Positions 5,163 through 33,397 of a stretch of 64,000 bases of DNA are shown in pieces. The stretch's first letter is position 1; every line of letters starts with the position of its first letter. Source of the DNA: Escherichia phage Es2; the sequence record OR515477.1; one strand, given 5' to 3'. The notes below the pieces were generated by a model, which made no database searches, was not told where the DNA came from, and saw only the letters and a list, made by a program, of their open reading frames with translations. Both the position numbers and the translations under genes were made by a program.

Positions 5163-5456
5163 ATGAAACGTTATCTTTCTGTTGTGTTCCAAACTGGTGG
5201 TCAACGCTATACTTACGAATTTCCTGGCTCTTGGAAGATCAAAGAAGGTGATCAAGTAGTAGTGTTAACACCGCGTGAGGGTTTTAAGGTAGTAACGGTT
5301 AAGCAAGTATTTCCAAAAGAGCGTGAACCAGCTAAAGGCATTCGCTATAAGATGATTCATGGTGTAGTTCGTCAAGTACCACGAGCGGAAGTCGAAATCA
5401 AAGTAGATAAAGATGGTAAACTTAAATATACCTCTTGCTTAGACGAGTTGCTATAA
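5163..5456 (+). CDS. hypothetical early protein
   Basis: Track ORF 97 aa, promoter and RBS upstream. Confidence 0.6.
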   Translation: MKRYLSVVFQTGGQRYTYEFPGSWKIKEGDQVVVLTPREGFKVVTVKQVFPKEREPAKGIRYKMIHGVVRQVPRAEVEIKVDKDGKLKYTSCLDELL

Positions 5457-5662
5457 TGAGGATTACTTTTACAGAAAAGATCATGAGTAATGGTGTTATG
5501 ATCATTACCGCATGGGATGGTAATCAGTGGTGTAGTGTTTCAGGTATTAAGCCTGAAGAACAAACACTAGATAATATCTCAAAGATTAAGCGAAGAATGA
5601 CAGAACGTGCACGACTTCCAGGTGCACCTAGAAATGGCAAACGTTCTGCTGCAAAATGTTAA
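5456..5662 (+). CDS. hypothetical early protein
   Basis: Track ORF 5435..5662 trimmed to in-frame ATG at 5456 that overlaps upstream stop (TAATG). Confidence 0.5.
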   Translation: MRITFTEKIMSNGVMIITAWDGNQWCSVSGIKPEEQTLDNISKIKRRMTERARLPGAPRNGKRSAAKC

Positions 5663-5663
5663 T

Positions 5664-5740
5664 GCTTCGGTAGCTTAGCGATCTAAAGCACTCGGCTGAT
5701 AACCGAGAGATCGGGGGTTTAAATCCCTCCCGGAGTACCA
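5664..5740 (+). tRNA. tRNA-Ile (anticodon GAT)
   Basis: Perfect anticodon stem CTCGG/CCGAG with loop CTGATAA, T-loop TTTAAAT, CCA. Confidence 0.65.
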
Positions 5741-5836
5741 AATTTAGGAATTAAGACTATGCGTCCAGGAAAGTTTAAAAAAGCTAATTGGTCTAAAGAG
5801 TATAAAGAATACTTACTTAGTCTAGTAAAACATAAT

Positions 5837-5912
5837 AGTTAGTTGGCAGAGTGGTTATGCACCTCCTTCATACGGAGCGACTACAGTGGTTCAAATCCAC
5901 TACTAACTACCA
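5837..5912 (+). tRNA. tRNA-Met (anticodon CAT), second copy; initiator/elongator/Ile2 not resolved
   Basis: Perfect acceptor AGTTAGT/ACTAACT, anticodon loop TTCATAC, T-arm AGTGG-TTCAAAT-CCACT, CCA. Confidence 0.65.
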
Positions 5913-5949
5913 TTAAAAGAGCTAGAGATAGCTAACTTTAGGAGCAGCT

Positions 5950-6144
5950 ATGTTAACAATTAAAATAATGTCAGCCAAGAATGGGGAACAGATTCATACA
6001 GGCAAAAGTGTAAGCTTTAATCCTAGAAATAAAAGACTGGCTATAGTTGGAGTAGACCAAGCCATCTTTTTAAAAGAAGATGAAGTAGCATATGTCATGA
6101 ACCAAACTGGTAAGACAGTTTCCGTATACTATGGAAAAGTATAA
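5950..6144 (+). CDS. hypothetical early protein
   Basis: Track ORF 64 aa, AGGAG RBS. Confidence 0.55.
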   Translation: MLTIKIMSAKNGEQIHTGKSVSFNPRNKRLAIVGVDQAIFLKEDEVAYVMNQTGKTVSVYYGKV

Positions 6145-22579: not shown

Positions 22580-22918
22580 AATCTCATAGATTAACAACTA
22601 CTCTAGTTGATTAACTCTAGGGGCGATGATTATTACACGAATGTCTCGTATAGCTTGCGGCCTAGCAACAGCGGTATGACGGCATGAGTACTCACGTAAT
22701 TAATCACGCGCCCACAGGAGAGACTCTCATGAAATTGGGGGTCTCTTTTTCTTTATATTATTTAAATATTTTTAATGGCAATATCTGTGTTCAAGATGAT
22801 ACACCTGTTGCCGCTCATCTGCTAGGATGGCACAACACTTTCTTCTAGACTCCTAAGTTTCTAGGAATAGTTGAGCACTAACTCTAGAGTTTACATTAAA
22901 CTTTAAATCTGTTTCTCT

Positions 22919-23075
22919 AGTCAACTCAGGCGGTTTTCATATTCCTAGAAACTCTAGCAATAGGCGGTTAATACAGGGCGGTTTTAGGGAGGGCGGTTAT
23001 TTCTAGAAGACATTTTTTGAAAACACATTTCTAGAAATTACTGTCGTATTTGCACACTGCATTTCTAGAAATTTA
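22919..23075. repeat. GGCGGTT direct repeats and ATTTCTAGAAAT palindromic 12-mers
   Basis: Four GGCGGTT(T/A) copies between 22919 and 23000; TTTCTAGAA(A/G) palindromes at about 23010, 23030 and 23062. Confidence 0.7.
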
Positions 23076-23643
23076 TGGTCGGATTTGCACAAACGCCTAA
23101 GTTTTTAGGAACATATAATCTCTTGAAAATGGCAGCATTATTTCGGGCCGAAGGCCCGTGATTGCCTGAGTTTTTAGAGCCACAAGAATTTTCACTTGTC
23201 AAGCTATTTTGCCCCATTTAGCAAATAAAATTTTACTTTATCTCCTCTAATCTCAAATTAACCCAAATCTTCTCAACTCTTCCCCAAAATACCCGCAAAT
23301 CAGGTGCTCCGCACCAAACATGCGCCTCTCCCACAGTTCCCCCAAAATTTCTCTCGCTCTCTCAACTTCTCCCCAAACATACACAATCACACACCCTCCA
23401 ATCGAAGCCACAAAAATCTTGTCGGATTCGCACATCTTAATCCTAGAAAAACCGTGTCGGATTTGCACATACCCCACAGGATTCGAACGCAGTTCGAGAT
23501 TGCTGGAGTTTTTAGGAAAATTCATTGTCGGATTCGCACACTATAAAAATTTTTCGGGTCGGATTTGCACACTACCAAAAATTGTCGGATTCGCACATAC
23601 ACGCCCGCACGTAACACCCGTGGAGCAATGTCGGATTTGCACA
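23042..23643 (+). repeat. eight direct copies of 15-bp motif (T/G)GTCGGATT(T/C)GCACA
   Basis: Copies at 23042, 23077, 23420, 23455, 23525, 23556, 23582 and 23629, all in the same orientation. Confidence 0.85.
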
Positions 23644-23667
23644 AAAGCGCAGGGCAATTGCCCTGCG
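23644..23667. repeat. perfect 24-bp palindrome AGCGCAGGGCAATTGCCCTGCGCT
   Basis: Read directly; centred on CAATTG, immediately after the last 15-bp repeat. Confidence 0.85.
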
Positions 23668-23880
23668 CTAAATGAGAATAAAAATAAGAATCATTCTCAT
23701 TTAGAAAGCGGAATGAGAATGATAATAATTCGCATTTAGAAAGCGAAATGAGAATCAATCTCATTTAAGAACGGAAACGAAAATTATTCAGGAAGTGAAA
23801 CGATTCTCATTTAGAAAGTGGAATGATTCTCATTTAGAAAGTGGAATGCAAATGATAATGATTCGCATTTAAGAATGGAA
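23668..23880. repeat. degenerate repeat family TCATTTAGAAAG(C/T)GGAATGA(T/G)
   Basis: At least six related copies with internal dyads (GAATGATTCTCATTC-like); a further copy at 24207-24232. Confidence 0.7.
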
Positions 23881-24012
23881 GTGAGAAACACTGTTATTTA
23901 AGTTATCCACAGACTTATCAACAGCACGATTTGACTTGACAAAATTCTAGCCATTTTGAGGCGTTATCAACAGACTTATCAACAGCTTATCCTACTGTAT
24001 AAATATACAGTA
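23880..24012. repeat. inverted-repeat arm L with DnaA-box-like 9-mers
   Basis: TTATCCACA at 23903 and TTATCAACA at 23915, 23964 and 23976; palindrome CTGTATAAATATACAG; reverse-complementary to 27111-27245. Confidence 0.8.
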
Positions 24013-24378
24013 TTCCTATGCAGTGAATAATTCTAATATACAGCTAAAACGCTCTCAAACGCATTCTAACGCGTTTAATTTTGGTGGGGATACTAAAACA
24101 CGGGCAAAATTGGAGGAGGCTTAGAAATTAGTTAGCTCGCTAACGATCACACAAGGCGACACGTAACATCCTAACCATTAGCAGGCTAACCATCGCGGGC
24201 GCGGTCAAATGAGAATGATTCTCATTTGAGAATTGGGGGCACTTCCTGATAGTTGCGCCCCGTGATTATTACAGTAGTGGGCAACCTTTACGCTTTGCCC
24301 ATTCCCGCCACTCATCTTGATGTCTAGACTTGCGACGGCGTACTAAAAACCATTTATACCAGTGATTAAACCATCGTT

Positions 24379-24582
24379 TCATAAATCCTCCTCCGGTAGT
24401 CGGTGCGTGATTTTTTCCTCCTCTCCGTAGGAATCCACTAAATGCTGATAATAACCATCGTGATCATAAATCACTTTATCATATTCGCCACGCTCGACCG
24501 CTTGTCGGTTTTCCGGCGTATCTGGCACGTAAAAAACATCAACCATTGTACTGATTTTGGTTACAACAATTTTATTGCTCAT
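24379..24582 (-). CDS. hypothetical small acidic protein
   Basis: Track ORF 67 aa; about 15 Asp/Glu against 7 Lys/Arg; last gene of the leftward operon. Confidence 0.55.
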   Translation of the reverse strand: MSNKIVVTKISTMVDVFYVPDTPENRQAVERGEYDKVIYDHDGYYQHLVDSYGEEEKITHRLPEEDL

Positions 24583-24607
24583 AATAACGCTCCGTTATTA
24601 TATAATC

Positions 24608-24952
24608 TCATTGTGCCACCTTTCGAAACGCTGTTTCAATACTTTCCGCAGTTGACTGAATATACGCGCCTTTCATGATCAGGCGCTCAGTGCATACCTT
24701 ACGGAAGATATTAATAAAATCATCTTCATTTTCTGCAATTAACGCTTCACCCATAACCTGAACGTCACAAGATGCAAAGGTCAAAAATTGAAACGCTAGT
24801 TCACGGGCAACGACCTCATTGATTTTATAATGCGCCTTGCCCTCATAAATATTAATAACGCCCTTATATGTTGGGGAAAGCTGATTTAAATAATTTGCTA
24901 ATAATGCTGGGCGGCAATTAGCAATAAAACGATTGCCTTCATAAATAACCAT
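24608..24952 (-). CDS. hypothetical protein
   Basis: Track ORF 24608..24967 trimmed to MVIYEG start with GGGAGG RBS. Confidence 0.55.
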   Translation of the reverse strand: MVIYEGNRFIANCRPALLANYLNQLSPTYKGVINIYEGKAHYKINEVVARELAFQFLTFASCDVQVMGEALIAENEDDFINIFRKVCTERLIMKGAYIQSTAESIETAFRKVAQ

Positions 24953-25079
24953 TTGACAGCCTCCCAATTAGATAGCCAGATAATAACATAAAGATCCCCA
25001 ATGAAAGGGGGTCATTTTTAAATAGGGTGGCGGTAAAACCGCCAGCCATTGCAAGGATGATAACAATAACGCTTTTCAT
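24939..25079 (-). CDS. hypothetical 46-aa membrane micro-protein
   Basis: Hand translation MKSVIVIILAMAGGFTATLFKNDPLSLGIFMLLSGYLIGRLSNGYL; overlaps neighbouring genes; below track cutoff. Confidence 0.4.
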   Translation of the reverse strand: MKSVIVIILAMAGGFTATLFKNDPLSLGIFMLLSGYLIGRLSNGYL

Positions 25080-25288
25080 AGTACCCCACGAAACGCAGCG
25101 TAAAAGGTGGCAAAATGTTTAACTGTTTCAGCTATCACGTTGCCGCGCTTGTCAAATTTCTTTTCTGTAACACGAAAGGCATTCTTATTACGTGCTACAT
25201 ATTCAATTTTACAATCTTCCCGCTCGAACGTGTTAACATCCACCAGCTTAAAGCCTTTCGAACGTGCAAGAGAAACATTGCGGATCAT
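25076..25288 (-). CDS. hypothetical basic protein
   Basis: Track ORF 70 aa; AGGAG RBS 8 nt upstream. Confidence 0.55.
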   Translation of the reverse strand: MIRNVSLARSKGFKLVDVNTFEREDCKIEYVARNKNAFRVTEKKFDKRGNVIAETVKHFATFYAAFRGVL

Positions 25289-25293
25289 TTTTA

Positions 25294-25440
25294 TTCTCCT
25301 TTACTAGTCATGCAGCCCAGCAGATAAGAAAATGCAGCGATACCCGCGCCAATAATAACCGCGTGAACACCGAAAGCTATTGCAAAAAGGGATAAAATAG
25401 CGCCCAAGATACCTGCTAGAATAGCTCGAAAAATAACCAT
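25294..25440 (-). CDS. hypothetical 48-aa membrane micro-protein
   Basis: Hand translation MVIFRAILAGILGAILSLFAIAFGVHAVIIGAGIAAFSYLLGCMTSKGE; GGAGA RBS; below track cutoff. Confidence 0.45.
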
Positions 25441-25486
25441 TTTCATTCTCCTAGTTTGCGGGGCGAAAGTAACGCCCCGTTATTAC

Positions 25487-25717
25487 TTACATTAAAACAA
25501 TTTTTGCCGCTTGTTTTTTAGTACAGTGTTCCGCTTTCAGGGTATCCAGCAAAAAGCCGGCCGTTTGCTGATCGATTTTATCGGCGTTGTATAGTTCTTG
25601 GATGGTGTTATAAGTTTTAGCAATGCCGAACTCCTGCACCATTTCATGAATGATGGCGCGATTAGATACCCAGCCTTGCGCGGTGAACAGATGACTAGCA
25701 GAAGAATAAGCAACCAT
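25487..25717 (-). CDS. hypothetical protein
   Basis: Track ORF 25487..25750 trimmed to MVAYSS start with GGAGG RBS. Confidence 0.55.
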   Translation of the reverse strand: MVAYSSASHLFTAQGWVSNRAIIHEMVQEFGIAKTYNTIQELYNADKIDQQTAGFLLDTLKAEHCTKKQAAKIVLM

Positions 25718-25835
25718 TTTAAACCTCCAAATTTTTGGGAAAATTTTCAACCGTCCTCAAACGGTGTAAAGGCATTATAACAAAAAAGGTCGCCATAAAA
25801 GGCGACCTTTACAAAACTTTACATTAGATTATTTA

Positions 25836-26846
25836 TTACTCGTTTTCGGTGTTAGTGGTAAAAGTAGAAATATCGATACCTTTTACCATTTCATCAATCA
25901 TTTCAGCGATGTTAAAACTTTGCACCATTTCCAACATTGCCGCTTCCATAGCTGCCCCTGCTACCGCTTTCGCTTTCTGGTTGCTTGGGGCATACTGGTC
26001 AACCGCTACGCTCAGCAGGTTGGCAATTACTACTCGACCGATAGGCGTATCAATATAACCTTTAATCATGAACGGTGCTTTTTTAGCCGCTACTTTCGTA
26101 ATTTGAGTCAGTGCAATTTTACCCGCTTCCAGTTTTGCAGCGTTTACAACGGCGGATTTATTAGCGGCAACGATGTTAGCAATCTTGGTCATGGTATTTT
26201 TTCCTTTATTTTCAGTGATTTGAGTATTAACGCTTTGAGTGTTAGAATTTACAGCATGGTTTTCTACGCTGTCAATAATCTGATCTTCATCTTTCCAGAA
26301 AGAAAAACCAGCGCTTTCTATATCCCCATCATAAATATACGGGTATAGCTCCCGTGGTAACAAAAAATTACCGTCGCCATCAAAAGCCATTATACCGGTA
26401 TATTGAGATCCGTCGTTATCCGGCTTATACCATCCAGCGGGTAAATACTTCCAGATAACATCTAAAAATCCCTCAATGCTAGAAAGTCCATTTATCAGAT
26501 CAAGCCCAATAAGCTCAAAACCATTTATATTAAATGATTGACGGCCTGAATTGCTATGATACGCAACAATAGTATTGCCCTGCGCAACAATAAAATCGGT
26601 ATCCGGCCCCGCTCCCCTGCCCGTAAAGATATGGCAATCCCGATTATGTAAAACTAGCGTTGCCCCTTGCTTATATAAGGGTAGAAAACTATCCATATCA
26701 TAGGCGTCATATTCATCAAAAAAGTTTTGATGAATAGTTTCAACCTTGTTAATAAAATGTTTAATGCTGGTTGACTTGCTACCGTCCAGCAGGTTACGCA
26801 ATGCACCTTTTAAGACGGTTGCGTTATCTGGTTTATAAAGCCTCAT
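25836..26846 (-). CDS. hypothetical protein with Ala/Lys-rich C-terminal half
   Basis: Track ORF 336 aa; first gene of the leftward operon. Confidence 0.65.
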   Translation of the reverse strand: MRLYKPDNATVLKGALRNLLDGSKSTSIKHFINKVETIHQNFFDEYDAYDMDSFLPLYKQGATLVLHNRDCHIFTGRGAGPDTDFIVAQGNTIVAYHSNSGRQSFNINGFELIGLDLINGLSSIEGFLDVIWKYLPAGWYKPDNDGSQYTGIMAFDGDGNFLLPRELYPYIYDGDIESAGFSFWKDEDQIIDSVENHAVNSNTQSVNTQITENKGKNTMTKIANIVAANKSAVVNAAKLEAGKIALTQITKVAAKKAPFMIKGYIDTPIGRVVIANLLSVAVDQYAPSNQKAKAVAGAAMEAAMLEMVQSFNIAEMIDEMVKGIDISTFTTNTENE

Positions 26847-27110
26847 TTGTTCGGCCTCCTCGTTAATCGGTGAGTGAATGATAAAGGTATTTTCTTTCTA
26901 GGGGCAAATATTATTTTACCTTTTTATTTTCTTTGCCTAACTCCTAGTTTTATGCTAATCGCGCAGCGGTACAGTAAAGAGCAAAACACGGCGAAGCCAC
27001 CAGGGCGACGGGTGAAGGCTTTACTTTAATATTACCCCACTGCATTTAGCTCGTTAGAAAGCGATTTAGGCCGCTTAAAATTGATTGCAGTTGTTAACAC
27101 TACCTTTTTA

Positions 27111-27245
27111 CCCTGTATATTTATACAGTAGGATAACCTGTGGATAAGTCTGTGTAAAAGTCCTTATATCGCCGCCTATCATGTCAAGTTATTTTACAAA
27201 ATGTATAAGTCTGTGGATAACTTAAATAATAGTGTTTCTCACTAA
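27111..27245. repeat. inverted-repeat arm R with DnaA-box-like 9-mers
   Basis: TGTGGATAA at 27139 and 27212; palindrome CTGTATATTTATACAG; reverse-complementary to 23880-24012. Confidence 0.8.
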
Positions 27246-27410
27246 CTAATTTATGCAGTTATTATATCGTAAAATATAGTTAGTTGGCTAATAGGATTTT
27301 AAAGTGATTATGAGTCCGCTAATTAAACCTGAAAAACTCATTAGCTAGTCTGCTAATCATTTTGATATAATATAATAGAGATTAAATTAATAACATAAGG
27401 AAACAATTAG

Positions 27411-27929
27411 ATGCCTAAATATAAACATATAGATTATGACCTTTTTAATAGTTACTTTTATTATGATGAAACATCGTTATCATTTTTACGCTGGCGAGAA
27501 GATCATGCCATCGCTGGTGGTTTAAATGGTAATTATTGGCAAGTTGAATTATTAGATAAAGGACAATTCAAAGTACATAGAATTATTTTTTGTATAATGA
27601 ATGGTGGTATAGATAGCGAGCTAATGATTGATCATATTGATCGTAACCCCCGTAATAATAACATTTGGAATCTTCGCGCGGTTGATAGTTCCCAGAATAA
27701 CTATAATAAGACTCCTAGTGAGTATGAAAACTATAAGCGTGCTAATGGTATCCCTAGAAACATTTACGTTAATAAAATTCGCCCCCGTGATAGTTTCGGG
27801 CGTGATTATTTAACTGCTCAAATTAAGAATCCTATTACTAACAAGCGTGTTAGTAAGTCTGGTTATGATTTACAAGAGTTATTATTATGGCTTGAAGCTA
27901 AAAAAGCTGAATTCGGAATTGTCAATTAA
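27411..27929 (+). CDS. HNH endonuclease (homing-endonuclease-like)
   Basis: 172 aa; HIDRNPRNNNIWNLR...SQNNYNK His-Me finger pattern; AT-rich gene inside a more GC-rich module. Confidence 0.65.
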   Translation: MPKYKHIDYDLFNSYFYYDETSLSFLRWREDHAIAGGLNGNYWQVELLDKGQFKVHRIIFCIMNGGIDSELMIDHIDRNPRNNNIWNLRAVDSSQNNYNKTPSEYENYKRANGIPRNIYVNKIRPRDSFGRDYLTAQIKNPITNKRVSKSGYDLQELLLWLEAKKAEFGIVN

Positions 27930-28154
27930 TTTATTTTATAAATTAACTCGTTTAGTCTTGATTTTTAAAAGTCAAGACCTTTTTCAACTATTTTTCAATT
28001 TTGCGGTTGTTAAATATTTGTTAAACCGAAAATAAGCCGCCTAAAACGCCCCAGAACGCGATGAAAGTTTTAGTCATGCCATTGCATTGCCTACCCTCGT
28101 TTATCGCTACCACGAGCTTTTTAGATTTTGTCAAGTAGGGGAAAGCAAATATAA

Positions 28155-28445
28155 ATGAAAAAATTACTTGCCTATCTGCTATGTTTTGTGGTATTCACGC
28201 GCCCGTTTCTTTTAATTTTAGTGTGCCGCGCCCTAGTCGCCGCACGCCGTCCGGTGAATCGTGTCTTTACGTTTCTTTACAAAAATAAGGTTGCGCCATT
28301 TTCGGGAATCCCCTATTATTTATCACGTAGGGCGGCAATGACGAACTACACGGCGGGAAGTTTACCGCCACGCTCTTTAAAAATTGGGTATATCTTAAAG
28401 CCTATCGGCGGTAAACTTATTCATTATAAGGAATCGACGATATGA
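28155..28445 (+). CDS. doubtful ORF (possible small secreted protein)
   Basis: Track ORF 96 aa with hydrophobic N-terminus, but GC-rich and structured region; could be non-coding. Confidence 0.25.
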   Translation: MKKLLAYLLCFVVFTRPFLLILVCRALVAARRPVNRVFTFLYKNKVAPFSGIPYYLSRRAAMTNYTAGSLPPRSLKIGYILKPIGGKLIHYKESTI

Positions 28446-28645
28446 AACAAACGCTTTTGATAACTGGTAAACCAGCTAAAAAATTAGATGGTACTACTAA
28501 AAAATTGTTGACAGTAGCGCAAAGATCCATAAGATATAGATTCACGCAGTACAAGAAAGGCCGCCAGCAAGGTTTAGAAATGATCTGGCGAAATATTATG
28601 ATTGACCTGAAAGAAAATCATAAAAAACTGCAAAAAATTGTTTGA
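28442..28645 (+). CDS. hypothetical small basic protein
   Basis: Track ORF 67 aa; bracketed by a 17-bp perfect inverted repeat. Confidence 0.5.
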   Translation: MKQTLLITGKPAKKLDGTTKKLLTVAQRSIRYRFTQYKKGRQQGLEMIWRNIMIDLKENHKKLQKIV

Positions 28646-28670
28646 CACCCTAGCCGATAGGCTTTAAGAT
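28642..28670 (+). promoter_or_regulatory. sigma70 promoter overlapping an inverted-repeat arm
   Basis: Consensus TTGACA at 28642, 17-bp spacer, TAAGAT at 28665; overlaps IR arm 28653-28669. Confidence 0.5.
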
Positions 28671-28875
28671 GTACCCAGTTCGATGAGAGCGATAACTTGA
28701 TACAATTTGACGGTCGGTGCTTACCATAATGCATCCCGCCCCCTAACTGGGATATAGCGGCCTGAGTGGAGTTCTTTAAATTGATTATAATGGCGAGCGG
28801 ATTGTTACTTATTACCTGCTACTATTTTCTAGTAGGTAATGCGAAACAATCCCCTAAATAACTGGAGTTTATACT

Positions 28876-29127
28876 ATGCAAAACGTTACTAATGCGCCGA
28901 AAATTGGTCAATCCGTTTTTATCCCTTTCGTTACCAAAACGGATGAATTAACCGGAAAAGCCGAACGTATTAAAGGTGCGGCGCTTATGCCGTTCGATAC
29001 AATCGACGCGGTATACGCTGAAAATGAACGCAGTAACAACGGCAAGCCGATTTATAACGTTCGCGTTAAATCCGGCGACGTTGTAAAGGTTGTTCAACGC
29101 AACGAAAAATGGGAAGCTGTACTGTAA
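28876..29127 (+). CDS. hypothetical pre-early protein
   Basis: Track ORF 83 aa, GGAG RBS; followed by a 9-bp-stem hairpin at 29143-29168. Confidence 0.6.
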   Translation: MQNVTNAPKIGQSVFIPFVTKTDELTGKAERIKGAALMPFDTIDAVYAENERSNNGKPIYNVRVKSGDVVKVVQRNEKWEAVL

Positions 29128-29225
29128 TCTAGTGTTAACTTTATATTCCCCTGAAATATGGGGAATATAACGATTAACATTAGTTAATCATAATCCCTTA
29201 AATTAAACTAATAGGAGTTTATATC

Positions 29226-29633
29226 ATGACTAACGCAAAAACCGCAAAATTCGCATGGAATGAAGAAAACACCCAAAAAGCTGTTACCATGTACCAGCAG
29301 TTAATCAACGAAAACGGTTTAGATTTCGCAAATAGTGACGGGCTGAAAGAGATTGCAAAAGCAGTAGGCGCGGCTTCTCCCGTATCCGTTCGCTCAAAAT
29401 TGACCAGTGCAAAAGCCTACCAGAAAAGCGATAAGCCGCGTAAAGTTGGCGGCGGCAGTTCTGTACGCAAAGCGCATTATGTGCGTGTTATTGCTAAACA
29501 TGCCATTGATTCCGGCATTATCAAAGACGCTGACGATCTGGCATCACTGGAAAGTGCAAAACTTGAAACGCTGGACGCGGTAGCGCAATTGCTAGGCGTT
29601 GCCGATGAAGTGAAACAAGCCGCAGGCGAATAA
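29226..29633 (+). CDS. A2: A2-like pre-early protein (putative DNA-binding)
   Basis: 135 aa; position immediately upstream of the A1-like gene; assignment by synteny and size only. Confidence 0.5.
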   Translation: MTNAKTAKFAWNEENTQKAVTMYQQLINENGLDFANSDGLKEIAKAVGAASPVSVRSKLTSAKAYQKSDKPRKVGGGSSVRKAHYVRVIAKHAIDSGIIKDADDLASLESAKLETLDAVAQLLGVADEVKQAAGE

Positions 29634-29722
29634 TAGTTATACATTGCCCTTCCTAGTGGGAGGGCAATAATATAACTGTTTAGCGATAGTTATTTTCTTC
29701 CCTTAAATCAGGAGTTTTAAAA

Positions 29723-29920
29723 ATGATTTTCTTTCCTACTGAATCATTAATTTTAGGCTTGTTTATTATGGCGGCCTCATTATTGTTCGCTTATTTTCAA
29801 AATGATTTAGATTCATATTATTTTAAACGTAAATCTAAGTTAGCAAAGCGTTTAGGTCTGATTTGTTTTATTGCCGCCGTTGCTTGTGGTGTTAGTTCTA
29901 GCCTTATGCCTTTAAATTAA
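29723..29920 (+). CDS. hypothetical membrane protein
   Basis: Track ORF 65 aa, two hydrophobic segments. Confidence 0.5.
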   Translation: MIFFPTESLILGLFIMAASLLFAYFQNDLDSYYFKRKSKLAKRLGLICFIAAVACGVSSSLMPLN

Positions 29921-30016
29921 TGTTGCAAATTATAACGCCTATTATTCAAGGCGTTATATTTGGCAATATTTGCCAATAACAAACGTTTTTTAATCCCTTT
30001 AATGGAGTTTATTACT

Positions 30017-31681
30017 ATGATTATTTCCGCAGAAAAACAAACCGTTATCCTGAAAATGGCCGCTGACTTTAATTTCTATGGTAAACGTCTGCGCGCCACT
30101 AAACTGGAGGTCTGCGACGATATATCAAAAGCGGTCTACGATACAACAAAACACTCGACCGCCATTTGTGATTGGCTGGAAGCAAATAAACCAGTTAAAC
30201 CAAAAGCTGCAAAAGTAGCAAAAGCTATTAAAAACGATGAGCGCCCCGAAGCGGCTGGGATCGTTTCTAGCACGGTTGAACAGTGGGAAGTAAAACAAGG
30301 CAAACGCTTTATTATTACGTCGATTCAGAATAATACTTTCCCGCATAAAAACTTTTTGGCCTCGCTTGAACAGTATGCTAAATACATCGGCGCTGATTTG
30401 CTTGTTTCTAAGTATATTTATAATAAAAACGGCTTCCAAAATGGTGAAGGTGCGGATGGAATCAAATATGATTCCGCGTTCGATAAGTATATTTGCAGCA
30501 AAAACGTGTTTTTAAACAACCGCCGTTTTGCTTTCATGGCTGAAATTAACGTTTTGCCTACCGCAGATTATCCGCTTTCTGGATTCGCTGAAACTGCAAC
30601 GGCGCTTAATCTTGAAGGTCTGGCAATTGGTCACGCTAAAATCACCGCCGAAAGCGTGCCAGCTTTAAAAGGTGAAGTAGTACGCCGCATGTACTCAACC
30701 GGAACGGCAACGCTAAAAAACTACATTCAGCAGAAAGCAGGGCAAAAAGCGGAAGCGCTGCATAACTTCGGTGCGCTGATTGTTGAGTTCGACGAAGACG
30801 GTGAGTTTTTTGTACGCCAGCTTGAAACAATGGACGAAAGCGGGGTGTTTTATGATCTGAATGTTTGCGCTACTCCCGCAGGATGCTATGAAACATCGGG
30901 GCATGTTTTAGGTTTACAATATGGCGACATCCACGCAGAAAAATTAGATGATGATTGTGCCGTTGCGTCATGGGCTGGCGAAAATAGCTTGCTTGATATT
31001 CTTAAACCAAAATATCAGTTTATCCATGACGTTCACGATTTTACATCTCGCAATCATCATAATCGTGCGTCCGGTGTATTCCTAGCGAAACAGTACGCCG
31101 CCGGACGTGATAAAGTTCTGGATGATCTTATCGATACGGGGCGCGTGCTGGAATCAATGGAACGTGATTTTAGTCAAACGATCATTGTTGAATCGAATCA
31201 CGATTTGGCGCTATCCCGTTGGCTGGATGATCGTAATGCTAACATTAAAGACGATCCAGCAAACGCCGAACTATATCACCGCCTGAATGCTGCAATTTAC
31301 GCGGCAATCGGTGAACACGACGAAACGTTTAACGTGTTAGATTATGCGCTGCGCAAGGTTGCAGGTTGCGAGTTTAACGCCATTTTCCTAACAACTGACC
31401 AATCATTTAAAATTGCAGGCATCGAGTGTGGCGTACACGGTCACAACGGCATTAACGGAAGCCGTGGCAATCCTAAACAGTTTAAGAAATTGGGCAAACT
31501 GAACACGGGGCATACGCATACGGCAAGCATTTACGGCGGGGTATACACCGCTGGCGTGGCTGGTAGTCTGGACATGGGTTACAACGTTGGCGCGTCAAGC
31601 TGGACGCAAACGCATTTAATTACCTATGCAAACGGTCAGCGCACTTTGATTGACTTTAAAAACGGTAAATTCTTTGCGTAA
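30017..31681 (+). CDS. A1: A1-like pre-early protein with metallophosphatase motifs
   Basis: Track ORF 29960..31681 trimmed to ATG at 30017 with GGAG RBS (554 aa); ESNHD and GHTHT phosphoesterase-like motifs. Confidence 0.7.
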   Translation: MIISAEKQTVILKMAADFNFYGKRLRATKLEVCDDISKAVYDTTKHSTAICDWLEANKPVKPKAAKVAKAIKNDERPEAAGIVSSTVEQWEVKQGKRFIITSIQNNTFPHKNFLASLEQYAKYIGADLLVSKYIYNKNGFQNGEGADGIKYDSAFDKYICSKNVFLNNRRFAFMAEINVLPTADYPLSGFAETATALNLEGLAIGHAKITAESVPALKGEVVRRMYSTGTATLKNYIQQKAGQKAEALHNFGALIVEFDEDGEFFVRQLETMDESGVFYDLNVCATPAGCYETSGHVLGLQYGDIHAEKLDDDCAVASWAGENSLLDILKPKYQFIHDVHDFTSRNHHNRASGVFLAKQYAAGRDKVLDDLIDTGRVLESMERDFSQTIIVESNHDLALSRWLDDRNANIKDDPANAELYHRLNAAIYAAIGEHDETFNVLDYALRKVAGCEFNAIFLTTDQSFKIAGIECGVHGHNGINGSRGNPKQFKKLGKLNTGHTHTASIYGGVYTAGVAGSLDMGYNVGASSWTQTHLITYANGQRTLIDFKNGKFFA

Positions 31682-31735
31682 TTAAATTATTACCCTAGCG
31701 GCTTGAAATACAGCCGCTATTATAGGAGTCAAAAA

Positions 31736-31993
31736 ATGAAAGTTACATTACCCAAAACATTAGACGAAAAAGCGTTTATTTCCCCCGATGAAATGGAATC
31801 CGATAAAGTTTACAGCTTCGGGCCTATCCTAGCCGCCAAAACTAATACTGATGGAATTATTACAGTCGATTATCGTGATAATGATATTGTTCCCTTTGAC
31901 GATGATGACGCTTTTTACGAGTGGTTAAGCGATAATAATTTACCCGTAAGTGGTGAATTAACGCCGTATCAGATGCAAATCATTATCAAATAA
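31736..31993 (+). CDS. hypothetical pre-early protein
   Basis: Track ORF 31703..31993 trimmed to ATG at 31736 with AGGAG RBS. Confidence 0.55.
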   Translation: MKVTLPKTLDEKAFISPDEMESDKVYSFGPILAAKTNTDGIITVDYRDNDIVPFDDDDAFYEWLSDNNLPVSGELTPYQMQIIIK

Positions 31994-32032
31994 TTTAAAT
32001 CCCCTTATTAAACTAATTGGAGTTTTATAACT

Positions 32033-32425
32033 ATGAAAAAGCAAAATATCCCATTCGACCGCGCTCAGTCCTCAATTGTTCTGGTTTATTCCAACGGCGA
32101 ACGTTACCACGTCGAGGCGGGGCACGTTATTGATGACCTATTAGATTTCAATGACGCTTTGCAGGTTACTACCTTTGCATATACGCAGGGCAAACTAACC
32201 AGCCATATTAAAGCAAAAGGCGTTTATGTTGACACGGTGAAACAAGAAACGATTATCATCGACGCCGTAAAATCCGGCCTAGCCTTTGCAGTTGTCGCGC
32301 CTTGCCTCGCTTGCCTTGATGATCAATTGATTAGTGCAAAGGTCTACACATGTGCGGGGATTCGTTCTAGCGTATCCGGTGAGGATGTTAGTTTTATCGC
32401 TGATGCGTTGGCTTATGGTCTTTAA
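32033..32425 (+). CDS. hypothetical pre-early protein
   Basis: Track ORF 130 aa, GGAG RBS. Confidence 0.6.
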   Translation: MKKQNIPFDRAQSSIVLVYSNGERYHVEAGHVIDDLLDFNDALQVTTFAYTQGKLTSHIKAKGVYVDTVKQETIIIDAVKSGLAFAVVAPCLACLDDQLISAKVYTCAGIRSSVSGEDVSFIADALAYGL

Positions 32426-32505
32426 TAGTTGATTTATTATTGCCCGCTTATAAATAGCGGGTAATGCTGAATTAATCTAATCCCTTAAATGGAGAACGTA
32501 ACAAA

Positions 32506-33240
32506 ATGAGTCAAGTTAAAACGAATATTACCCGCTCTTTCCCGCATATTTCCCGCGTTATGATTTGGGATCTGGACGGCACTATCATTAATTCTTTCCA
32601 TCGTGTAGCGCCTTGTTTTGATAGCGAGGGCAATTTAGATTTAAATAAATATAAAAATGAAGCCTGCAAACATCATTTAATAATGCAGGATTCATTATTG
32701 CCATTAGTTGAATATATGCGCCAGTGTATGAATGACGCTAACACGTTAAACATTATTTGCACCGCTCGACTGATGAGCAAGTCAGATTATTATTTCTTGC
32801 GTAAACAAGGATTGCGGGGGCGTGGAAATAGCAATATCCGCGTGTTTTCCCGCGATACCCTGCACAAATACTTTAAAGCTGATAAAGTTAGCGAGATATA
32901 CCACAGTAAGGACGCAGTTTATAAATCTTATTATTTTGAATTATTTAAACAATTATATCCGAACGCTGATTTTACAATGATTGATGATCATAAAGGCGTG
33001 TTAGCGGCGGCGGCATCATACGGATTTAAAACGCTGGACGCACAAGCCGTTAACGATATTCTATCAATCGGTGTTACATTGATTGGTGAAACCTTTATTG
33101 ATGAATCGCTCGACGATGATAATGATTATCAGTTCCTAGCAGACCGCCTGCAATTATGTTGGGAAGGTATGACCGAGGAAGAACGCGCAGAATATAGTTG
33201 CAGTCCTCAACAGTACATCGAGAAATTAAAAGTTGCATAA
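32506..33240 (+). CDS. dmp: 5'-deoxyribonucleotidase, HAD family
   Basis: 244 aa; HAD motif I IWDLDGTIINS; size and position match my recollection of T5 dmp. Confidence 0.75.
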   Translation: MSQVKTNITRSFPHISRVMIWDLDGTIINSFHRVAPCFDSEGNLDLNKYKNEACKHHLIMQDSLLPLVEYMRQCMNDANTLNIICTARLMSKSDYYFLRKQGLRGRGNSNIRVFSRDTLHKYFKADKVSEIYHSKDAVYKSYYFELFKQLYPNADFTMIDDHKGVLAAAASYGFKTLDAQAVNDILSIGVTLIGETFIDESLDDDNDYQFLADRLQLCWEGMTEEERAEYSCSPQQYIEKLKVA

Positions 33241-33397
33241 TAATTAAAGTTGAAATAGTCACGGTGTGTAATGATAACATGCCGTGACTATTAGTCTGCT
33301 AAGTACCGGGCGGTAATGAGACTCATTCTCATCTGGTGGGCCACTGGACACACCTCCATGTGTAATCTTATGAAATTTGGCAAAAAGGTAATTAGCG

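Follow-up and report, generated by a model that had tools for sequence, protein, structure and literature searches.

The AT-rich HNH gene of Escherichia phage Es2 is probably a free-standing homing endonuclease gene and a divergent allele at the hegG locus of T5-like phages

Homing HNH genes account for most of the differences among T5-like genomes (PMC10644984), and the known system nearest to the gene described here is hegG of phage T5. Davison (2020, bioRxiv 10.1101/866236) noted the insertion in T5 and its absence from most T5-like phages, and hegG is present in less than 15% of Demerecviridae genomes (10.64898/2026.04.02.716235). The same study reports that hegG can be deleted together with genes 011-017, and that T5 HegG expressed alone is toxic in E. 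coli and leads to nucleoid compaction typical of DNA damage, with the bulk DNA not degraded; these toxicity data were obtained with the protein of T5, which shares only 56% identity with the one examined here. Among enzymes of solved structure, I-HmuI of Bacillus phage SPO1 is a nicking endonuclease (PMC3017599), and the HNH_3 or I-HmuI-like nucleases form group 2 of the His-Me finger classification (Jablonska et al. 2017). Free-standing endonucleases of T-even phages are thought to spread in mixed infections, in which the gene-less allele is cut and its flanks are co-converted (PMC2330249). As the same insertion has been described for T5 and its relatives, the gene reported below is real but ordinary. 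Earlier work thus covers the insertion and its patchy occurrence, as well as the fact that T5 HegG is toxic and dispensable, and our additions are incremental: precise boundaries, at least three coexisting alleles with conserved ends, an AP2-like C-terminal domain and a quantified discordance between the gene and its flanks.

The window is a stretch of 64,000 nucleotides from Escherichia phage Es2 (sequence record OR515477.1), a T5-like phage of the genus Tequintavirus. The 4 kb surrounding the HNH open reading frame (ORF), used as a query, have their best match in Escherichia phage vB_EcoS_FFH_1, at 92.6% DNA identity over 99% of the query, and match 533 phage records, nearly all of them T5-like phages of Salmonella, Escherichia and Klebsiella. 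Positions 22790-33259 of the window are colinear, in reverse orientation, with T5 10608-105, that is, with the left terminal repeat, the first-step-transfer (FST) DNA that carries the pre-early genes dmp, A1 and A2, and the T5 equivalent of the ORF is hegG (T5.010), annotated as 'putative H-N-H-endonuclease P-TflVII'. We find that the ORF is intergenic, between divergent pre-early units and outside any intron or intein, with expression signals of its own, and hence a free-standing gene. The features of the locus are the following.

23880-24010: left arm of an inverted repeat of ~131 nt, found by repeat search
25836-26846, minus strand: homologue of T5.011, left neighbour gene of the HNH ORF, 40.4% GC
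27113-27243: right arm of the ~131-nt inverted repeat, found by repeat search; left border of the endonuclease-linked DNA, outside the mobile gene
27244-27357, plus strand: AT-rich region upstream of the ORF, in which AGTYNGCTAAT occurs three times (27282, 27313 and 27347)
27358-27920, plus strand: minimal endonuclease-specific DNA, 563 nt, in place of a ~87-nt segment of empty alleles
27363-27371, plus strand: extended -10 element TGATATAAT of the likely promoter, read from the sequence
27397-27401, plus strand: ribosome-binding site AAGGA, 9 nt before the ATG, read from the sequence
27411-27929, plus strand: HNH endonuclease ORF with ATG start, 172 aa
27955-27987, plus strand: intrinsic-terminator-like hairpin (stem-loop 27955-27978) and T run, 3' of the stop codon
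28036-29200: right neighbour gene, 40.9% GC

An earlier note, made from the letters of the window, had called an HNH gene at this place, AT-rich and unlike its neighbours, inside a GC-richer module. The gene itself is borne out by an ATG-started ORF that matches both the HNH_3 and PHROG 99 profiles, and so is its composition, 32.6% GC against 40.4% and 40.9% for the genes on either side. With a third-position GC of 24%, the ORF falls in the 3rd percentile of all 519-nt segments of the 64 kb (mean 38.9%, standard deviation 3.3%), about two standard deviations under the mean, and GC reaches its minimum for the 64 kb (28.3%) in a stretch that overlaps the region upstream of the ORF. The GC-richer module is a weaker matter: the first-step-transfer region (~23.0-34.0 kb) is indeed richer, but by a small margin, 40.1% as compared to 38.9% overall. 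The insertion of the HNH gene accounts for the local anomaly in composition. Four other islands of low GC (14.4-15.0, 17.6-18.5, 46.0-46.9 and 51.8-52.7 kb) were considered as further endonuclease insertions and rejected; their ORFs, judged by length and position, look like ordinary early or structural genes, and tblastn with the HNH protein finds nothing in them. Throughout the 64 kb, tblastn likewise detects no paralogue of the protein, the next best hit having E=1.6.

The two arms of the inverted repeat (23880-24010 and 27113-27243) are 77-97% complementary and correspond to the T5 repeats IRD'spacerIRC' and IRCspacerIRD, the right arm being IRCspacerIRD (Davison 2020, 10.1101/866236); these repeats have been proposed to be part of the T5 injection stop signal. 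DnaA boxes lie at 23903 in the left arm and at 27139-27147, 27151-27159 and 27212-27220 in the right arm. The DnaA-box consensus is not enriched window-wide, with 6 found and 8 expected, and only its clustering in the arms stands out. The inverted repeat brackets the leftward pre-early operon, made up of the homologues of T5.011-017. The HNH ORF had been placed by the earlier note just inside the right arm; in fact it begins 168 nt to the right of that arm, and the gene is therefore outside the arm pair. A larger inverted repeat that would enclose the gene was sought and rejected, the remaining inverted pairs being short and weak. Other repeats are found nearby. Direct repeats of ~91 nt within 23679-23902, 80% identical and 133 nt apart, are non-coding, adjoin the left arm and probably correspond to the repeats known as DRE/DRB in the injection-stop region of T5. 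On the other side, a 39-nt inverted repeat (28371-28409 and 28653-28691, 82% complementary) flanks a small ORF at 28442-28645, the homologue of T5.008, and is also visible as reciprocal BLAST hits to T5.

Alignment with gene-less relatives, put forward in the earlier note as the way to define the borders of the insertion, gave these borders. Relatives with or without the HNH gene all align up to 27243, and the endonuclease-linked sequence starts exactly at the end of the arm, at 27244. The AT-rich region that follows (27244-27357) has its homologue in the pre-early promoter region found in empty alleles, but lacks the TAGTTATTATTTCT-type repeats of the latter and has one more copy of AGTYNGCTAAT. 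This motif is present four times in the window, against 0.55 expected, and three of the four copies are upstream of the HNH ORF. Given that two copies are kept in relatives devoid of the endonuclease, such as L005, the motif belongs to the promoter/operator region of the locus and not to the inserted gene. Empty alleles match the motif region through TAGTCTGCTAAT (27347-27357), then hold a conserved segment of ~87 nt that is not present in the window, and their homology to it resumes at GTCAATTAA (27921-27929), the last two codons and the stop codon of the HNH ORF. Therefore the minimal gene-specific DNA is 27358-27920. The ~87-nt segment is 92-98% conserved in most empty loci and 86-88% conserved in the most divergent two, L022 and L030; as the piece that the gene replaces, it is a candidate, and only a candidate, for the homing target. 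The difference between occupied and empty alleles is wider than the minimal insert, as the two differ in haplotype over the whole stretch from the repeat arm to ~28000.

As for expression, a strict scan for sigma-70 -35/-10 pairs listed no promoter directly upstream of the ORF. The promoter, which we consider likely, was called from a TGnTATAAT element seen in the letters and from the annotation of T5: TGATATAAT falls in the part of the locus where T5 has its annotated hegG promoter, and at the equivalent place a promoter is predicted in BF23 as well. The terminator-like hairpin downstream is also found in the empty relative L012, and so may belong to the locus and not to the inserted gene. 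L012 is empty and yet has a terminator-type right flank, indicating that recombinant alleles exist. Further to the right, a polymorphic patch at 28000-28100 occurs in two haplotypes (~74-80% and 93-94%) that assort independently of the endonuclease gene.

How widespread is the gene among relatives? Using the T5.011 homologue (25836-26846) as bait, we fetched 30 loci from viral contigs and added those of T5, BUCT632 and BF23. The spacing between conserved anchors, which end at 27243 and start at 28250 in the window, falls into two classes, ~890-1020 and ~517-603 nt, and the 24 distinct relatives carry the following.

Window's allele, 92-96.5% amino-acid identity: 6 of 24
T5 allele, 56% amino-acid identity: 1 of 24 (T5)
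Third allele, 174 aa, 53-55% identity: 3 of 24
Truncated copy of 115 aa: 1 of 24 (L017)
Different HNH of 113 aa, ~400 nt further right: 2 of 24 (L020 and L022, phages SSP1 and SHSML-45)
Empty: 11 of 24

The larger phage collection gives the same picture of presence and absence at one site among close relatives. A contiguous empty allele is found in 367 of 555 matching records; 75 records have DNA similarity of any extent to the HNH ORF, homologues at the protein level (E<=1e-10) occur in 102, and only 25 have the window's allele at 80% amino-acid identity or more. Copies in the collection are 89-96.5% identical and in several phages are annotated as 'homing endonuclease'; annotated near-identical copies are those of FFH_1, NR01, NBEco002, NBSal005, EC100, fp01 and others. 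Other HNH genes were also seen in this part of the genome. The 113-aa HNH gene of L020 and L022 shares the intergenic region of the window's gene, yet both loci retain the ~87-nt segment of the empty alleles, and the point of insertion may therefore be a second and independent one. A related HNH protein with 41% amino-acid identity is encoded at a second site of the terminal repeat in phages Shivani (NC_028754, 1411-1854) and HdH2 (NC_048748, 1402-1845); records with this second-site gene (coordinates 1400-1850) carry a copy at the hegG locus at ~5400-6000, and in the window the second-site insertion is not present at the position corresponding in T5 coordinates (31738-31984).

The history of the HNH gene is discordant with that of its flanking genes, as expected of horizontal spread. 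The gene is 92-96.5% identical in phages whose adjoining gene is 55-76% identical: the T5.011 homologue and the HNH gene show, respectively, 58% and 95% identity in L028, 74% and 96.5% in L025, 74% and 95% in L024, and 76% and 92% in L019. The reverse case is found too, since with a neighbour 96% identical the site is empty in L005 and holds the third allele in L027. In divergent backgrounds a sliding identity profile of ~45-60% rises to ~90-99% over ~27050-28000. These comparisons indicate that the gene has travelled from one phage background to another without the gene next to it, and the variable shared tract at ~27050-28000 is consistent with, rather than proof of, over-transmission with co-conversion of flanks in mixed infections. 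Some of the empty sites could be explained by loss through deletion instead of gain by homing. The T5.011 homologue has a history of its own: its 5' half (26200-26650, minus strand) occurs in sharply different allelic forms, with 42-60% as opposed to 95-99% DNA identity, and its C-terminal half is more than 90% identical in all relatives, making a second mosaic hot spot beside the endonuclease locus.

The one site is shared by full-length alleles of at least three divergent kinds. Between T5 and the window, DNA identity is ~95% in the promoter region, 51-74% in the ORF core and 92-94% in the last ~80 nt and the terminator, and the third allele repeats this pattern of conserved ends and divergent core. 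Shared ends around divergent cores mean that the locus holds cassette-like alleles. Among copies of the window's allele, the dN/dS ratio is 0.05-0.18 in all pairs with amino-acid differences and 0 in one pair of identical proteins; values of 0.05-0.18 place the gene under purifying selection, maintained rather than decaying.

The protein matches Pfam HNH_3 (PF13392) over residues 54-97 (E=1.4e-12), with 47.5 bits well over the curated cutoff of 24.8, and PHROG 99 'HNH endonuclease' with E=6.6e-31. Because a search of the PDB by sequence alone returned only a weak match to I-HmuI (E=0.008), a structure model was needed. The AlphaFold2 model, built from a 68-sequence alignment, has a mean pLDDT of 93 and a predicted beta-beta-alpha-metal fold like that of I-HmuI. 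The parts of the protein are these.

Residues ~1-54: N-terminal beta-rich domain
Residues ~55-100: HNH beta-beta-alpha core, with D74, H75, N83, N87, N96 and N99
Residues ~113-170: AP2-like DNA-binding domain

In the 13 closest homologues D74, H75, N82/N83, N87, N96 and N99 are invariant; the 68-sequence alignment has D74, N83 and N87 without exception and H75, N96 and N99 in at least 90% of its members. The catalytic Asp-His general base and the Asn metal or structural ligands are thus in place, and they align with the DH...N...N of I-HmuI. Pfam AP2 adjoins HNH_3 in many more distant homologues. Taken together, the residues, the model and the AP2 domain of homologues give an architecture of N-terminal beta domain, HNH core and AP2-like domain, as is usual for homing enzymes in group 2 of the His-Me finger nucleases. 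The gene is predicted to encode an I-HmuI-like nuclease of monomer size, in which the catalytic residues are intact and a DNA-binding module lies on either side.

We conclude that the ORF is probably a free-standing HNH homing endonuclease gene, a divergent allele of T5 hegG, in the non-coding part of the FST repeat region. The earlier note had proposed a free-standing homing insertion, and this proposal is well supported by empty and occupied alleles, discordance between gene and flanks, the gene's own signals, intact catalytic residues and purifying selection. Homing would proceed as follows. As a pre-early gene, it would be transcribed by host RNA polymerase upon entry of the first 8% of the genome. 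Should a T5-like phage with an empty allele infect the same cell, that allele would be nicked or cut by the enzyme in or close to the ~87-nt segment, and recombinational repair from the gene-carrying genome would copy the gene together with a variable length of its flanks, roughly 27050-28000. Since there is only one HNH site in the protein, and I-HmuI, its closest relative of solved structure, acts as a nickase, the most likely chemistry would be a strand-specific nick, turned into a break by replication; it is plausible, by analogy with I-HmuI, that the enzyme nicks rather than cutting both strands.

Could the gene be kept for the benefit of its phage, as a domesticated pre-early nuclease that helps in damaging host DNA or in takeover at first-step transfer, and not for selfish spread? 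Its location, next to pre-early genes for host takeover and downstream of a pre-early promoter, and the purifying selection on it would agree with such a role, as would the toxicity of T5 HegG, which alone compacts the nucleoid of E. coli, a mark of DNA damage. However, toxicity through off-target cutting is common in homing enzymes and counts against domestication, hegG is dispensable in T5, and chromosomal DNA is degraded by A1, not by HegG expression. Moreover, some two thirds of the T5-like phages, if not more, do not have the gene, and its flank-discordant identity and several alleles per site have the look of a mobile element; we regard domestication as unlikely. Homing endonuclease genes are also expected to decay after fixation, which would speak for an inactive, decaying remnant, and shortened HNH relatives do exist at the locus (115 aa in L017, 113 aa in L020 and L022). 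Yet the ORF is full-length in all seven copies of the window's allele (the window and six relatives), the catalytic residues are invariant, dN/dS is 0.05-0.18, the structure model is confident and the toxicity of the T5 allele shows it to have biological activity, so that a remnant seems very unlikely.

It had further been suggested that the HNH enzyme could contribute site-specific nicks, and we considered whether it introduces the single-strand nicks of T5-type virion DNA. T5-like genomes do bear site-specific nicks, and the closest solved relative is a strand-specific nickase. This suggestion, however, fails on BF23, which carries T5-type nicks (PMC10644984) although its site is empty, with 348 nt between the shared flanks as compared to 794 nt, and tblastn finds no HNH homologue in its first 10.5 kb. 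Hence the gene is not present in all nick-bearing phages, and most T5-like phages are without it. The alleles of T5 and of the window are only 56% identical in the parts that contact DNA, the gene is pre-early, so that its product would appear while most of the genome is still outside the cell, and a T5 mutant deleted from hegG to 017 is viable (10.64898/2026.04.02.716235). The lack of the gene in BF23, its rarity and its pre-early timing together argue that it is not the general source of the nicks, a role that we hold to be almost certainly wrong. In the literature searched, we found no identified T5 nicking enzyme.

The homing gene that we favour may have a further use. With expression from the first 8% of the genome and a position against the DnaA-box inverted repeat, the enzyme could act as a very early weapon between phages, directed at the FST DNA of a T5-like co-infector that is without the endonuclease. 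We put this forward as a rather improbable idea. If true, the rival would be nicked or cut before second-step transfer, and either excluded or converted in its terminal repeats, which goes beyond mere homing during replication. On this view, the three alleles, alike at their ends and unlike in their cores, would differ in specificity and compete for one site.

Beyond correct annotation, the HNH gene is of little consequence. It marks a recombination hot spot in the T5-like terminal repeat, and pairs of empty and occupied alleles offer ready substrates for the putative HegG-type enzymes, which could be useful reagents should they prove to be rare-cutting nickases. In T5-like genomes intended for phage therapy, the gene is an accessory selfish element and of no concern.

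Compared with known systems, the protein shares with I-HmuI (PDB 1u3e, 174 aa) its HNH_3 clan and group and a similar beta domain and HNH core, whereas sequence identity is only ~16-20% and I-HmuI is encoded in a group I intron, unlike the free-standing, intergenic gene of the window. The Seg and Mob genes of T-even phages, such as segB of T4, are likewise intergenic nuclease genes with a patchy distribution among close relatives; Seg enzymes, however, are of the GIY-YIG type and Mob enzymes are HNH proteins of the PF01844 group, as opposed to HNH_3, and cleavage and marker exclusion have been demonstrated for several of them. [quoted passage not shown] The nearest system is hegG of T5 (T5.010, P-TflVII, 'ORF 9' of Davison 2020), which has the same locus, from the DnaA-box arm to the homologues of T5.009/008 in the terminal repeat, the same orientation and the same length of 172 aa. 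The proteins are 56% identical, with a 6-residue indel in the N-terminal domain. With 51-74% identity of DNA in the ORF body and 56% of protein, the two represent different alleles or lineages, which may differ in specificity, and for the window's gene the most fitting name, judged by its sequence, is that of a divergent hegG-locus allele.
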